From: Candidatus Aenigmatarchaeota archaeon
Lineage (GTDB): Archaea; Aenigmatarchaeota; Aenigmatarchaeia; CG10238-14; SCSR01
Length of the DNA: 64,000 nt
Direction: 5' to 3'
Assembly (NCBI GenBank): GCA_039090665.1
Contig: JAWCSL010000001.1
Coordinates: 23,308-87,307 of the forward strand
Within the stretch, counting starts at the first letter, position 1. The number at the start of each line of letters is the position of its first letter. The position numbers were made by a program, and so were the translations under genes. The notes below the pieces were generated by a model. It ran no database searches. It was not told the DNA's origin and saw nothing but the letters and a program-made list of their open reading frames with translations. Positions 15,563 to 24,222 of this stretch are shown piece by piece.

Positions 15563-17298
15563 TTCTGGTTGATCCCGCCAGAGGCCACTGCTATCCGGCT
15601 TCGACTAAGCCATGCGAGTCGAGAGGGGAAAGCCCTCGGCGCACTGCTCCGTAATACACAGTCAACCTACCCTTAGCTGGGGGATAATCCCGGGAAACTG
15701 GGGCTAATACCCCATAGGTGCTAGGTACTGGAAGGTCCTAGCGCCGAAAGCTCCGGCGGCTAAGGATGGGACTGTGGCCTATCAGCTTGTTGTGGAGGTA
15801 AAGGCTCCACAAGGCGATAACGGGTACGGGCTATGGAAGTAGGAGCCCGGAGATGGACTCTGAGACATGAGTCCAGGTACTACGGTACGCAGCAGGCGCG
15901 AAAACTTCTCAATGCTCGCAAGAGCGAAGAGGGAAGCCGGAGTGCCCTTGCTCTGCAAGGGCTTTTGCGGTCTGAAAACGGGACCGCGAATAAGGGGTGG
16001 GTAAGACGGGTGCCAGCCGCCGCGGTAATACCCGCGCCCCGAGTGGTGGCCACGATTATTGGGCCTAAAGCGTCCGTAGCCGGTCTGGTAAGTCCTCAGT
16101 GAAATCCTCTAGCAAACTAGAGGGCTTGCTGGGGATACTGCCAGACTTGAGACTGGGAGGGGGCAGGGGTACTCCCAGGGTAGGGGTGAAATCCTGTAAT
16201 CCTGGGGGGACCACCTGTGGCGAAGGCGCCTGCCTGGAACAGGTCTGACGGTGAGGGACGAAAGCTAGGGGAGCGATCGGGATTAGATACCCCGGTACAC
16301 GAGGTTGGGTATCTTCTGATTTAAAGATGAAGAAAAATCCCAACTCAAGCTAGGATTTCCTAACTCGTGCGGGAAAGTCCTAGCCGTAAACGATGCCCGC
16401 TTGGTGTTGCAAGCTTCTCGGGAGCTTGCAGTGCCGAAGCGTAGGTGTTAAGCGGGCCGCCTGGGGAGTACGCCCGCAAGGGTGAAACTTAAGGGAATTG
16501 GCGGGGGAGCACACAAGGGGTGGGCGTTGCGGTTCAATTGGATTCAACGCCGGAAATCTTACCAGGGCCGACGGCAGGATGAAGGTCAGTCTGAAGGGCT
16601 TACCAGACGAGCCGAGAGGTGGTGCATGGCCATCGTCAGCTCGTACCGTGAGGCGTGCGCTTAAGTGCGTTAACGAGCGAGACCCACACCCCATGTTGCT
16701 AACTGCTTCTCCGGAAGCAGTGCACTCATGGGGGACCGCTGGCGATAAGCCAGAGGAAGGAGTGGGCGACGGTAGACAGGTAAAAGGCTCAAGACCGATT
16801 CATGTGAAAAAAAGATGAGCATGAATATCGCCCAGAGCCGTACATGTCTTTTACCTGACCGAAGTCCGTATGCCCCGAATGCCCTGGGCCACACGCGACG
16901 CACAATGCGCGCCACAATGGGATGCGACCCCGAAAGGGGAAGCAAAGCCCCTAAAAGCGCGCTCAGTTCGGATCGAGGGCTGTAACTCGTCCTCGTGAAG
17001 CTGGAATCCCTAGTAAGCGAACGTCATCATCGTTCGCTGAATACGTCCCTGCTCCTTGCACACACTGCCCGTCAAGCCAATCGAGCGGAACTCCATCGAG
17101 GCTTGCGATGAGCAAGTCGAGTTGGAGTTCTGTGAGAGGGGCTAATCTTGGGGGTCCAGAAAAAAATAATATGAAAGAATTGGCTTGACTCTGATGTGAT
17201 GATGAGATGGAGGTGAGTTGATTGCTTGTATGGACCTCCCAAGAGCCTAAAGTCGCCACAAGGTAGCCGTACGGGAACGTGCGGCTGGATCACCTCCT
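15563..17298 (+). rRNA. rrs: 16S rRNA (~1736 nt, unusually long; three ~70-90-nt insertions)
   Basis: The 5' end is ATTCTGGTTGATCCCGCCAGAGG and the 3' end is GCGGCTGGATCACCTCCT. The GC-rich block stands out in an AT-rich genome. Insertions relative to the archaeal consensus lie at about 16298-16376, 16776-16863 and 17159-17230. Confidence 0.9.
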
Positions 17299-17525
17299 TA
17301 CGTGCAACCCTACCTCAGGCACCATAAACAACCCTACCTGAAAGAATTTTCCTTTTTATCAGTACCAAAGTAAAAAAAATTAAGCTCGAATCTTTACCAT
17401 TATCCTCAAATTTTTCAATTCTTTTCTTAAACTGTTTTCAAAAAGCTTGTGTTAACTAAAAACTAAAATAAATGAGAGAAAAATAGCTACCGAGCTTATA
17501 AAATAATAAAAATTGGGAAACCATT

Positions 17526-20865: not shown

Positions 20866-23800
20866 TCACTAAGGCCTAACAAGCTGACCCCACTTGGTGG
20901 ATAGCTTGGCTTCGGAGCCGAAGAAGTACGTGGCAAGCTGCGATAAGCCTGGGGTAGCCGCATGCAGGCGTAGATCCCAGGATCTATGAATGCGAATCGC
21001 TGGCTTCGGCCAACTCCGAAAGGAGGGGGAACGCGCTGAATTGAAGCATCTTAGTAGGCGCAGGAAAAGAAATCAAATTGAGATGCCGTTAGTAGGGGCG
21101 ACCGAAAGCGGCAGAGGGCAAACCGAACTGGTTGGCGAAGAGCCAAACAGGATGTGGAGTTGTAGGACCTGTGTCCTTCCTATCCTAGCCGACCTGAAGT
21201 CTGCTGGAAAGCAGCGCCAAAGAGGGTGATAGCCCCGTAAGGGAAGGCTAGGAGGAAGATGGCAGGTATCCTGAGTACCATTTCCTGGATGGGAAGTGGG
21301 AAGCTGGGTGAATTAACATCCAACCCTAAATACTCCCGAAGTCCGATAGCGAACTAGTATGGTGACAGAAAGCTGAAAAGCACCGCGAAAGCGGGGTGAA
21401 AAGAGCTTGAAACCAAGTGGGGATAGTCAGACACGGCCCGGAAGGTGCTCCTTCGAATGAAATCCGAAAGGAGAGTAAGAGAAGGAGCTTACAGGGTCGT
21501 GTCGTCCGTGCGGAAACACGGGGCAGGGAGTTTGTCTCAGTGGTGAGGTTAACTTGCTTTCACAAGGTAGCCGGAGCGAAAGCGATTAGCCCGCAACTGT
21601 TCTTTATGGACAGTGAGGGGCAGGGTATGAAAGTGCCTGAAATCACTGGGACAAGACCCGAAGCCAGGCGATCTAACCCTGGGTAAGGCGAAGTCCCTCG
21701 AAAGGGGGATGGAAGCCTGCTACCGGTGCTGAGTTACAAATCGCTCGGGTGACCTGGGGTTAGTGGTGAAAAGCCTAACGAGCCTGGCGATAGCTGGTTC
21801 CTCCCCAAATGCACGTCAGTGCAGCCTGGTCGGAGGTAGGCAATGGGGTAGAGCTACTGATTGGAAGGTCAAGGACCGAAAGGTTCAGCCTTCCTGTCAA
21901 ACTCCGAATCCATTGCCACCTGAGAAGACCGGAGTGAGGGTGCTGGGGTAAGCTCGGCACTCGAAAGGGGAACAACCCAGCCTAGGGTTAAGGTCCCTAA
22001 ATGCTAGCTAAACGCTGAAGGGTGTCTGAACCCTCAGACAGTAGGGCTGTAGGCTTAGAAGCAGCCATCAGATAATAAGTGCGTAACAGCTTACCTACCG
22101 AGGGTTCGGGCCCCGAAAATGGAAGGGACTAAGCTAGCTACCGATACCCTAGACCGCGAAAGCGGGGGTAGGGAGGCGTCCTGCATGGGCAGAAGCCTCT
22201 GCGTGAGCAGGGGTGGACCGTGCAGGATTGAAGATCCTGCCGAAAGTAACAGCAAAGTTAGGTGAGAATCCTAACCACCTGAAGCCTAAGGGTTTGCCAG
22301 CAATGTTGGTCAGCTGGCAGTTAGCCGGTCCTAAGGGTGCTCTTAACCGAAGCACTCGAAAGGGAAAGCCGTTAATATTCGGCTGCCATGGGGATACGTG
22401 CGGCGACGCAAGCCAGTTTTCCGACGCTTCGGGATAGGCAGACGCAAGCTAACTGCCGAAGTGAGCGGAGTCTCTTAATGAGGAGAAGCTCATGAAGGCA
22501 GGAATGGCTCCTCGTATGAGGAGTTCTGCTGATTCCTGGAGCCCGTGAAAAGGAAAACTGGAAGGATTCCCCATGACCGTACCGAGAACCGACACAGGTA
22601 GGCTTGCCGAGAAGGCAAAGGTGTGTTGGGAGAACCCAGCCTAGGGAAATCGGCAAGTTGGCCCCGTATCTTCGGTAGAAGGGGTGCCTGTTCTCTCGCA
22701 AGGGAGAGCAGGTCGCAGTGACAAGGGGGAAGCGACTGTTTAACAAAAACGCTGGAGACCGCAAGTCCGAAAGGATGTGTACGGTCTCTGATGCCTGCCC
22801 AGTGCCGGTGTGTGAAAGCCCGGTTCAACGGGAAGAAGCCCCGGCAAACGGCGGCGGTAACTCTGACCGTCGTAACTCAAGGCGGTCATTTGATTTAATG
22901 ATATTCCGCTGCCTTGGGCGGCATAAGTAGCGTAATCCCTTGCCGTTTAAATGACGGCCCGTCTGAACGGCTTAACGACTTCCCCACTGTCCTGGGCTGG
23001 GACCCAGTGAACTCGCCTTTCCGGTGAATAGGCCGGAGACCTCCTGTGGGAAACGAAGACCCCGTAGAGCTTTACTGCAGTCTGGTGTTGTGGTAAGGTT
23101 GTGACTGCATAGAGTAGGTAGGACTCGCTATTAGGCTGAGGCTTCGGCCGAAAGCTGAGAGGAAAGTGTAACACTACCCTTTCGCAACCTTACCGCTAAC
23201 TCGAAAGAGGACAGCACCAGATGGGCAGTTCGGCTGGGAGTCTAGAAGTCTAAATGAGGAGTCCCTTAAGTTATGATTTTTTATGATTAAGGGCATACGA
23301 ACCGAAAGGCTTCTAGACCAGCAAGCGGTACGCCCTCGGTAAAGGATCGAGGGCGCCCAAAGGTCAGCTCATCCGGGTCATGGTAGAGTCTAGTAAATGA
23401 TTGGACCGTTCCAGAATGATCTTAATGATTTCTGAGGTAGCTGATGAGAATAGGCTCTACCACCCGCAAGAAATCCGGAGTAGAGTGTAAGCGCAAAAGC
23501 TGGCCTGACTGGATTCCGCAAAGCGAGGAATCCAGCCGCGAAAGCGTGGGCTAGCGATACTTCGGTTCCTCTTAATGGGGGCCGGAGGTATCAGAAAAGC
23601 TACCTCGGGGATAAACTAGCTAGGGCTGATTAAATTATTTTTCTTCATATCTAGCTAGTTCCCTAAAATGGGCCCGTGGCCGGCGAAAGCCCACTGCTCG
23701 AAGGGGTTTTTCGTCCCAAAGATAGCGAGCCTCGGGTTCTGAACTCGAGCCCTTCGCGCGGGTAAATTGACCCGGCGCGTTGGTGCGTCGATGTTGGCTC

Positions 23801-24222
23801 CCCCTCTCCTGGCCGTGCAGCAGCGGCCAAGGGTACAGGTGCCCACTGGTTAAAAGGGGACGCTAGCTGAGTTCAGAACGTCGTGAGACAGTTCGGTCGC
23901 TATCTACAGGAGGTGCTGGTCGTCTGACCGGAAGGAAGGGTTAGTACGAAAGGAACACCCTTCCGTGGCCTCTGGTCTACCGGTTGTCCATTTGGCATCG
24001 CCGGGCAGCCAAGCCATACGTGGATAAGAGCTGAATGCATCTAAGCTCGAAACCACCCGGAAAAATAGACGACCACTCTTGCTACTGGTGCGCAAGCATC
24101 GGTGGCAAGACGAAGGCCCCTGTAGACTACAGGTTTGATAGGGGAGAGGTGTAAGCCTCAAGCTTTCGAGCGAGAGGCGAGCCTGCTCCTACTAAAAGCC
24201 TGAGTTGTTAGGCCTTGATAAG
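20866..24222 (+). rRNA. rrl: 23S rRNA (~3.35 kb, boundaries ±20 nt; contains several short AT-rich insertions)
   Basis: The 5' region …GGTGGATAGCTTGGCTTCGGAGCCGAAGAAGTACGTGGCAAGCTGCGATAAGCC… matches the archaeal 23S start. The flanking processing helix is CCACAGGATCAAGGAG (20849-20864) paired with CTCCTTGATCCTGTGG (24224-24239). Insertions are seen at about 23263-23293, 23383-23461 and 23616-23660, plus an enlarged region up to about 23790. Confidence 0.85.

Follow-up and report, generated by a model that had tools for sequence, protein, structure and literature searches.

Ribosomal RNA genes kept in ancestral order but probably transcribed apart in a hot-spring Aenigmatarchaeota archaeon

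In the canonical euryarchaeal-type operon, the 16S and 23S ribosomal RNA (rRNA) genes lie on one strand with a tRNA-Ala(UGC) between them, each rRNA is enclosed by a bulge-helix-bulge (BHB) processing stem, the spacers are short and free of genes, and a 5S gene follows downstream. The window studied here, a stretch of 64,000 nucleotides (nt) from Candidatus Aenigmatarchaeota archaeon (assembly GCA_039090665.1, contig JAWCSL010000001.1, positions 23,308 to 87,307), retains the order, the strand, the tRNA-Ala position and the two stems, but an antisense 2-kb gene for a membrane pyrophosphatase (PPase) and further open reading frames (ORFs) occupy the spacer, a second predicted promoter precedes the 23S gene, an oligo-T run lies past the 16S gene and no 5S gene is found within the 39 kb downstream. 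Does such a locus still work as one operon? Our answer, to which we assign a probability of about 80%, is that the 16S, tRNA-Ala and 23S genes of this hot-spring archaeon of the DPANN group have kept their ancestral order and orientation and are no longer a single operon.

Gene order and promoters

Rfam models place the 16S gene at 15562-17298 (forward strand, 1737 nt; SSU_rRNA_archaea RF01959, 1297 bits, model positions 1-1478) and the 23S gene at 20872-24215 on the same strand (3344 nt; LSU_rRNA_archaea RF02540, 2578 bits, model positions 1-2987). The gap between them, 17299-20871, measures 3573 nt and thus exceeds the 1500 bp above which rRNA genes are defined as unlinked (Brewer et al., bioRxiv 10.1101/705046). 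Read in the rRNA orientation, the locus consists of 16S, the antisense PPase, two small ORFs (ORF94 and ORF81), tRNA-Ala, 320 nt and 23S. The sole long ORF in the gap (17526-19544, reverse strand, 672 amino acids (aa)), convergent with the 16S gene, matches Pfam H_PPase PF03030 over positions 2-645 of 645 (E = 5e-246). The tRNA-Ala(UGC), at 20480-20551 on the forward strand (ARAGORN; 73 bits in Rfam), has no encoded CCA, and the G3:U70 pair can be read directly from its acceptor stem, GGGCCGG/CCGGTCC. The rRNA genes have a G+C content of ~56% in a genome of ~33%. The original prediction for this DNA had described a 16S end at 17298, an antisense 672-aa H+-PPase with two small ORFs in the gap, a tRNA-Ala with G3:U70 near the 23S gene and the absence of 5S rRNA, all of which hold, the last throughout the 64-kb window by Rfam search (gathering score and E <= 0.05); its 23S start at ~20866 is corrected to 20872, with BHB cleavage predicted after 20870. 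That prediction also called the locus atypical, which is appropriate against the textbook operon but not for a member of DPANN, a group with a high prevalence of unlinked rRNA genes (PMC8997704).

One line of evidence for separate transcription is a pair of near-identical promoter-like regions. Ahead of the 16S gene (15383-15420, forward strand) there is an A-rich stretch resembling a B recognition element (BRE), a TATA box TTAAATAT at 15390-15397 and an initiator TTATTTATTTGC at 15409-15420, with a predicted start near 15419. The corresponding region ahead of the 23S gene (20580-20618, forward strand) comprises a BRE-like CGAAA, a TATA box TTTATAAATA at 20587-20596 and the same initiator TTATTTATTTGC at 20607-20618, with a predicted start near 20617. 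The two upstream sequences, AAACAAAAACAC-TTAAATAT-AC...TTATTTATTTGC and TTCGAAATC-TTTATAAATA-C...TTATTTATTTGC, are near-duplicates in which TTATTTATTTGC sits ~20 nt past BRE/TATA, and this exact 12-mer, found at 15409 and 20607, has no other copy in the 64 kb.

The strongest support comes from comparison across lineages. An alignment of the DNA upstream of the 23S gene was made for six lineages, the window and the contigs L091, L092, L096, L099 and L106 (L001-L010 and L091-L106 being our labels for contigs compared with the window). Alignability begins exactly at BRE/TATA, and the DNA further upstream is unrelated: the window has the tRNA there, L091 and L099 have ORFs, and L092, L096 and L106 have other sequence. 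The TATA box and a block TTTGCCGGTGT are invariant across the six, L099 and L106 included, although the 23S genes of these two are only ~81-82% identical and the PPase is absent from both. The 16S promoter is conserved in L091, L097 and L099, and there too conservation sets in at BRE/TATA. Since the 23S promoter begins 36 nt past the 3' end of tRNA-Ala, the tRNA lies outside the 23S unit, and a TATA-like AT-rich element is present ahead of it at ~20424-20440. Archaeal RNA polymerase terminates at oligo-T, and the run TTTTCCTTTTT at 17347-17357, past the 16S trailer, is likely to be the 16S terminator; the opposite strand offers an oligo-T to the convergent PPase, visible as an A-run at 17373-17380. 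Taken together, the duplicated TATA box and initiator, the onset of conservation at TATA, the oligo-T, the antisense gene and the variable cargo of the gap support the earlier proposal of unlinked, separately transcribed rRNA genes.

We therefore propose the following model. Most likely, the 16S gene has a TATA promoter to itself and its transcript ends at the oligo-T just past its processing stem; the PPase, converging on 16S from the other strand, would be an ordinary housekeeping gene; tRNA-Ala probably forms a separate small unit; and transcription of the 23S gene most likely starts from the second promoter and includes a conserved leader of ~255 nt. Each pre-rRNA would form a long processing stem that contains a canonical BHB. 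By analogy with studied archaea, this BHB would be cut by the tRNA-splicing endonuclease EndA, with the ligase RtcB circularising the excised RNA, and the same two enzymes would also remove the BHB mini-introns found in both genes. The independent 23S promoter would predate the PPase, because L106 and L099, which lack the PPase (in the former with a gap of 1.5 kb), already have that promoter. Once uncoupled, the interval would have been free to gain and lose genes, so as to reach its present range of 1.5 to ~8 kb with different cargo. The gene positions, the promoter-like elements with their conservation, the BHB structures, the layouts of the relatives and the subtype signature of the PPase are shown by the sequences themselves; the sites where transcription starts and stops, cleavage, circularisation and splicing, as well as the order of the evolutionary events, are what we infer.

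Several points weigh against this model. The promoters were recognised by eye, from consensus and conservation, and not by a calibrated model; the start sites, the termination after 16S and the lack of read-through are predictions from sequence; the putative promoter of tRNA-Ala is weakly defined; and one of the rRNA insertions described below, at ~23630-23765 in the 23S gene, has no canonical BHB, a relaxed BHB scan and folding having given no clear solution. Moreover, all the relatives examined share the order and orientation of 16S, tRNA-Ala and 23S, with which some read-through or co-regulation would be compatible. This last point is also the first argument for regarding the locus as one operon still, in which a promoter upstream of 16S would yield a 9-kb transcript running through the PPase region and tRNA-Ala into 23S, the 3.6-kb gap being a long internal transcribed spacer; both processing stems are intact, as they are in linked operons. 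We nevertheless consider a single operon unlikely, given the conserved BRE/TATA and initiator directly upstream of 23S, where conservation sets in at exactly the same point in six lineages, and the oligo-T run past the 16S trailer. A gap that holds antisense genes and ranges from 1.5 to ~8 kb with unrelated cargo is, besides, hard to square with a spacer that has to be transcribed and folded.

A gap with changing contents

Relatives were found through homologous proteins and the contigs encoding them, as well as by scanning metagenome contigs for an exact 29-mer of the tRNA-Ala; a PPase scan of genome contigs, swamped by the universal GAWDNAKK pattern, returned only PPases 45-54% identical from unrelated phyla, and neither this species nor any close relative. 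Four lineages have the antisense PPase next to tRNA-Ala/23S. L091 (PPase 87% identical, 16S 94.6%) shows 16S, ORF170, PPase, tRNA-Ala, three ORFs and 23S, with a spacer of 5.2 kb, and L096 (PPase 79%) shows 16S, PPase, tRNA-Ala, 858 nt and 23S, with a spacer of 3.1 kb. In the case of L092 (PPase 89%), the 3' end of 16S lies at the contig edge and is followed by a methyltransferase, a PolB-exonuclease, a PD-(D/E)XK gene, ORF117, PPase, tRNA-Ala, a YdjM-like ORF and 23S (~8.1 kb), while the contig of L102 (PPase 89%) covers the PPase-to-23S side, with PPase, tRNA-Ala, 2270 nt and 23S. The PPase is absent from the remaining relatives: L099 and L097 (23S ~82%) have 16S, 949 nt with a 265-aa antisense ORF, tRNA-Ala, 2972 nt with two ORFs and 23S (4.0 kb), and L106 (23S ~81%) has 16S, 920 nt with a 298-aa ORF, tRNA-Ala, 525 nt and 23S (1517 nt). 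No 5S gene lies next to 23S in L099 or L106. The 16S-23S interval thus varies from 1.5 to ~8 kb with differing genes, in a constant order of 16S, tRNA-Ala and 23S; the DNA between the rRNA genes turns over quickly, and the window is among its more compact variants.

The spacer ORFs of the relatives have no match in Pfam, NCBIfam or PHROGs, except for the PolB-exonuclease, PD-(D/E)XK, methyltransferase and YdjM-like genes, all of L092. Between the 3' end of 16S and the PPase (7197-11694 of its contig), L092 has gained ~4.9 kb with the methyltransferase, the PolB-type exonuclease (635 aa) and the PD-(D/E)XK nuclease (624 aa; PHROG 'CRISPR/Cas system associated'), a segment that may be an integrated mobile element.

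Could the PPase and the small ORFs likewise be a recent insertion, mobile or horizontally acquired, that split a linked operon? The PPase has a G+C content of 38-40% against ~33% in its flanks, the ORF94/ORF81 segment is species-specific, the L092 gap holds PolB-exonuclease and PD-(D/E)XK genes of mobile-element flavour, and in more distant Aenigmatarchaeota, with PPases 73-74% identical, the gene has a different setting, its neighbours being a soluble pyrophosphatase and a P-type ATPase, with no rRNA nearby. Against this, the PPase lies between 16S and tRNA-Ala/23S in lineages whose PPases are 79-89% identical to that of the window, a layout which must be old if it is common to proteins diverged to 79%; the nearest PPases (70-89% identical) come nearly all from Aenigmatarchaeota where named, which gives no sign of transfer from another phylum; and the relatives without a PPase already have the separate 23S promoter together with a protein-size ORF between 16S and tRNA-Ala. 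As the search for direct repeats at its flanks, an integrase or a transposase gave nothing and the layout is old within the clade, we reject a mobile-element origin of the PPase and regard a recent insertion of any kind as quite improbable.

The arrangement has a very slight chance of being an artefact of assembly, either a false joining of 16S and 23S contigs through a PPase contig or a mixing of bins, because the independent assembly L001 (GCA_039000055.1) spans the entire locus and seven shorter contigs cross the 16S-PPase junction. L001 covers window positions 7527-29544 at 99.95% identity and so extends beyond the complete locus by 8 kb on one side and 5 kb on the other. Altogether, ten contigs with the identical PPase match the window at 99.87-99.97% identity; the PPase is covered by nine of them beyond L001, drawn from four data sources (NCBI, JGI, ENA and Logan), of which seven reach into 16S (L002-L004 and L007-L010) and two, L005 and L006, begin within the last 30 nt of the 16S gene. 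The exact sequences of the PPase, ThiI and ORF94 are on record in JGI, ENA and Logan contigs as well as in several assemblies at NCBI that bear the name 'Candidatus Aenigmatarchaeota archaeon'. Furthermore, the PPase stands beside tRNA-Ala/23S in the four further lineages mentioned above, with 16S on its other side in three of them. The chimerism that the original prediction had raised as a concern is thereby answered. It is true that rRNA genes are hard to assemble from metagenomes, that L003 was binned as Archaeoglobaceae and that the 16S versions in L004 and L096 score poorly against the model, but these poor scores come from extra BHB introns: that of L004, tried as a chimera, was rejected as such and is explained by an extra 228-nt BHB intron which L096 has as well. 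L003 itself (GCA_038855655.1, contig JAWCHR010000077.1) is a contig of 5.1 kb, 99.96% identical to window positions 15334-20451, which was probably put into the wrong bin on account of its rRNA gene.

Unlinked rRNA genes, which were reportedly described by Tu and Zillig in 1982, are known from DPANN, Asgard and Thermoplasmata archaea. Their prevalence is high among DPANN and Asgard, and within Aenigmarchaeota some members have linked genes and others unlinked ones (Juttner & Ferreira-Cerca 2022, PMC8997704). The locus in the window resembles the unlinked genes of DPANN, Asgard and Thermoplasmata in its spacer of more than 1500 bp, in the protein genes between the rRNAs, in having its 5S elsewhere and in belonging to a small-genome, probably symbiotic archaeon, and it resembles Prometheoarchaeum syntrophicum, whose tRNA-Ala adjoins 23S (PMC8997704), in that tRNA-Ala stays beside 23S. 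In contrast to the classic unlinked genes, which are tens to hundreds of kb apart, with a mean of ~410 kb (Brewer et al., 10.1101/705046), those of the window are 3.6 kb apart in ancestral order and orientation, and a comparison across lineages allows a separate 23S promoter to be predicted. Whereas PMC8997704 points to degeneration of the processing stems after unlinking, both canonical BHB stems are here fully retained.

What was known, then, is the existence of unlinked rRNA genes in DPANN; what is added is a close series of spacer states with an older independent 23S promoter, retained BHB stems and intron-rich rRNA genes. Unlinked rRNA genes serve as an evolutionary character for DPANN and Asgard and in arguments on eukaryote origins (PMC8997704). 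Most reported cases are end states with distant genes, while this clade offers a series of 1.5, 3.1, 3.6, 4.0, 5.2 and ~8 kb, all members of which combine an unchanged order and intact BHB stems with a predicted 23S promoter that is independent already. The series suggests that transcriptional uncoupling came first and physical separation later, and the coordinates given here allow testing in hot-spring metatranscriptomes.

Processing stems, introns and a recurrent motif

A systematic scan for the 3-4-3 bulge-helix-bulge geometry, together with folding, yields a long flank helix with two 3-nt bulges 4 bp apart for both rRNAs (co-folds of the flanks, -58.6 kcal/mol for 16S and -65.0 kcal/mol for 23S; all features of this section on the forward strand). 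In the case of 16S, GGUG-[AAA]-CCU ... AGG-CACC-[AUA], the 5' strand of the stem is 15533-15553 (H GGUG at 15535-15538, bulge AAA at 15539-15541, predicted cut after 15540) and the 3' strand is 17317-17357, including the oligo-T (H CACC at 17320-17323, bulge AUA at 17324-17326, predicted cut after 17325), for a predicted excision of 15541-17325; the element GGTTGATTGGTGAAACCTAGAGGTA of this stem is invariant in four sequences. The 23S stem, an inverted repeat of 40 nt with 90% complementarity, reads ACACUACCACAGGAUCAAGGAG-GUCA-[CUA]-AGGCCUAACAA ... UUGUUAGGCCU-UGAU-[AAG]-CUCCUUGAUCCUGUGGUAGUGU: its 5' strand, 20843-20882, comprises a 22-bp outer helix, H GUCA at 20865-20868, bulge CUA at 20869-20871 and an 11-bp inner helix, with a predicted cut after 20870, and its 3' strand, 24205-24244, contributes H UGAU at 24216-24219 and bulge AAG at 24220-24222, with a predicted cut after 24221, so that 20871-24221 would be excised. 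In model archaea, such BHB stems are substrates of EndA, and RtcB then circularises the product (PMC12918454, PMC7714728). The original prediction was right that each rRNA keeps its own stem, although the stems are no evidence of uncoupling, because the 16S and 23S of ordinary linked archaeal operons each have one. Within the 16S leader, at 15415-15502, CAUGGGUC and GACUCAUG pair in a conserved helix of 8 bp for which L091 shows a compensatory change; this helix has a BHB-like context, AUUU-[GCU] ... AGAU-[AUU], and may be an additional leader processing site.

Both rRNA genes are over-long (1737 nt against a 1478-position model for 16S, 3344 against 2987 for 23S) because of insertions of 79-130 nt, located at sites of universal conservation, that had gone unnoticed in the earlier description of the locus. 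There are three in 16S (80, 85 and ~103 extra nt in cmscan) and three in domain V of 23S (88, 93 and 130 nt), and for five of these there is a BHB motif exactly at the insertion site, with an inner helix of 6-12 bp, four of the motifs being canonical and one lacking the outer helix. The first 16S mini-intron (16297-16375, 79 nt; 80 nt in cmscan) lies within the universal GAUACCCCGGUAGUCC segment, with the BHB AC-CCCG-[GUA]-CACGAG ... CUCGUG-CGGG-[AAA]-GU. The second (16776-16863, 88 nt; 85 nt in cmscan), also present in L096, has the BHB GA-CGGU-[AGA]-CAGGUAAAAGGC ... GUCUUUUACCUG-ACCG-[AAG]-UC, with an h2 of 12 bp. The third (17145-17250, 106 nt; 137 nt in cmscan against 34 in the model), between h44 and h45, shows the relaxed BHB GGGC-[UAA]-UCUUGGGGG ... 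CUCCCAAGA-GCCU-[AAA] that lacks the outer helix, and its site recurs in L096 with a different h2 sequence. As for 23S, mini-intron A (23239-23324, 86 nt; 88 nt in cmscan), in the P-loop region, has the BHB UCG-GCUG-[GGA]-GUCUAGAAGUCU ... AGGCUUCUAGAC-CAGC-[AAG]-CGG and a counterpart site in L099, again with a different h2. Mini-intron B (23380-23468, 89 nt; 93 nt in cmscan), with the BHB UC-CGGG-[UCA]-UGGUAGAGUCUA ... UAGGCUCUACCA-CCCG-[CAA]-GA, is present in L099 and L106 with H and bulges kept and unrelated h2 helices, that is, with covariation. The third 23S insertion (~23630-23765, ~130 nt), the one already named as lacking a canonical BHB, lies in the helix 89 region (130 nt in cmscan against 5 in the model).

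A predicted cut after the second bulge nucleotide restores universal sequence, for instance GAUACCCCGGU|AGUCCUAGCC in the 785-805 region of 16S, and the predicted junctions GAUACCCCGGUAGUCCUAGCC, GACGGUAGGUCCGUAUGCCCC and GGGGCUAAGUCGCCACAAGG agree with the model consensus. Across L096, L099 and L106, the same intron sites recur with H and bulges kept and h2 sequences unrelated, a pattern of compensatory change. Further introns, some of them larger, occur at other positions in the relatives: a 610-nt 16S intron in L091 (8140-8749) with a 178-aa ORF that has weak, below-threshold helix-turn-helix (HTH) matches; a ~936-nt 23S intron in L092 (141-1078) encoding a 295-aa LAGLIDADG_3 plus HTH protein, with a further rRNA intron position at ~3499-3567; and, in L099, a 578-nt 23S intron and a candidate 866-nt BHB intron in 16S. 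The 228-nt BHB intron of L096 (1772-1999) and L004 (at window position 16571) is missing from the window, and intron content thus varies even between close strains. The first two 16S introns have similar exon contexts, CGGUA|GUCC (16291-16299) and CGGUAG|GUCC (16770-16778), which may reflect a target preference of mobile introns or coincidence.

BHB introns in rRNA genes are classic in Thermoproteales (PMC4496867), and a limited literature search found, as the only rRNA intron for Aenigmarchaeota, a group I intron (PMC6125680); Rfam detects no group I intron here. The introns of the window and its relatives are like those of Thermoproteales and Desulfurococcales (Jay & Inskeep 2015, PMC4496867) in that several occur per rRNA gene, at conserved functional sites and with a 3-4-3 BHB, in that their presence varies by strain and in that larger versions carry LAGLIDADG homing-endonuclease ORFs, here in L092. 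They differ in that the host is a DPANN archaeon and not a crenarchaeote, in that the copies of the window are 79-106 nt long and without ORFs, and in that several contain a CUGA...GAUGA motif. As introns sit in universal primer and probe regions, including 785-805, PCR surveys would under-detect these organisms, and length-based annotation would misjudge their 16S and 23S genes.

The same motif marks the 23S leader, or 5' external transcribed spacer (20619-20842, part of the ~255 nt in all), which is conserved across the clade up to the processing stem in the six-lineage alignment. This leader has two CUGA-N5-7-GAUGAAGA motifs, at 20690-20705 and 20797-20810, belonging to two tandem units that are conserved in the six lineages and may be read as C/D-like, each having C-like, D'-like and C'-like boxes at C/D-like spacing. 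In the whole window, CTGA-N3-9-GATGA occurs seven times when both strands are counted, five of them on the forward strand inside the ~1 kb that rRNA leaders and introns make up (16316-16330, 17191-17205, 20690-20705, 20797-20810 and 23432-23447, the last being the CUGA-GGUAGC-UGAUGA of 23S mini-intron B), and three of the four exact copies of AAGATGAAGA lie within rRNA leader or intron sequence; the enrichment in leaders and introns is strong and real. A similar element, UUGA-UAAAG-GAUGAAAGA, is found in the ~36-nt intron of a tRNA(CAT) of 107 nt at 12438-12544, which was detected by Rfam and missed by ARAGORN.

Compared with box C/D RNAs, the spacing of these elements is C/D-like and the terminal D boxes are degenerate; Rfam gives no match for them. 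The only complements found between leader and mature rRNA are 10-mers (20815-20824 of the 23S leader with 23886-23895, and 15523-15532 of the 16S leader with 15662-15671), a complementarity at chance level (103/300 shuffles) that identifies no significant guide target. Kink-turn (K-turn) RNAs derived from archaeal rRNA spacers were reportedly described by Tang and colleagues in 2002. The CUGA...GAUGA modules resemble K-loop/L7Ae sites and may be such. Two copies stand in tandem in the 23S leader, and single copies lie towards the apex of several BHB mini-introns and of one tRNA intron. One may speculate, with a doubt that we wish to make plain, that all these features belong together: the rRNA genes would be syntenic and uncoupled, the gap between them a hotspot of gene capture, and the modules of the pre-rRNAs would act in cis as L7Ae-binding or guide elements for BHB folding or for the modification or chaperoning of domain V. 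If so, the modules would assist processing in a way peculiar to rRNA genes that are uncoupled and rich in introns.

The pyrophosphatase, the small ORFs and single-base differences

The PPase is most likely a K+-independent H+ pump, because its signature residues are like those of its closest solved structure, PDB 8b37 from Pyrobaculum aerophilum, a 'K(+)-insensitive pyrophosphate-energized proton pump'. It has a full-length H_PPase fold with all acidic motifs, as aligned to 8b37 and 4a01, and in GNTTKA(I/T)TKG it carries the Lys-for-Ala and Thr-for-Gly signature of the K+-independent subfamily, which is present in 8b37 (GNTTKATTKG) and missing from the K+-dependent 4a01 (GNTTAAIGKG); what is unusual about it is only its genomic position. 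These Lys and Thr residues, according to what Belogurov and Lahti are said to have reported in 2002, decide K+ dependence. Since all Na+-PPases known to us are K+-dependent, transport of H+ rather than Na+ appears to be the function. NCBI and JGI name the protein 'sodium-translocating' or 'K+-stimulated', and the best NCBIfam match is also 'sodium-translocating', names that look generic and are unsupported by the signature residues. The 'duplicated' DNVGDNVGD motif pointed out in the original prediction is present and is no peculiarity of this protein: it is identical in 8b37 and 4a01 and is the signature that all membrane PPases keep invariant, a 16-residue stretch of the query being identical in 8b37 and nearly identical in 4a01.

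The two small ORFs between the PPase and tRNA-Ala, both on the reverse strand, have no family in Pfam, NCBIfam or PHROGs, and the segment that holds them is private to this species. ORF94 (19602-19886, 94 aa) is a hypothetical protein found only in assemblies of this species, in a single-member cluster, and it is absent from L091, L092 and L096, whose tRNA-Ala lies 68-101 nt from the PPase start. ORF81 (20041-20286, 81 aa; cluster members of 75-81 aa) is doubtful as a gene, because a 1-nt indel at 20234 shifts its frame in L001.

Beyond the 23S gene, two forward-strand ORFs of 96 and 99 aa at 24322-25043 of the window correspond to one intact 239-aa gene in L001, which has no Pfam match and contains a IIVDEAVSGSSS stretch resembling a phosphoribosyltransferase motif. 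Homopolymer runs of the window contain additional T's at 24609 and 24728, and the split gene is either a strain pseudogene or the product of homopolymer assembly errors. The remaining indels between the window and L001 (17371, 20234 and 25094) likewise involve one base each, in homopolymers of A or T, a pattern that could come from noise in assembly or sequencing or from genuine slippage.

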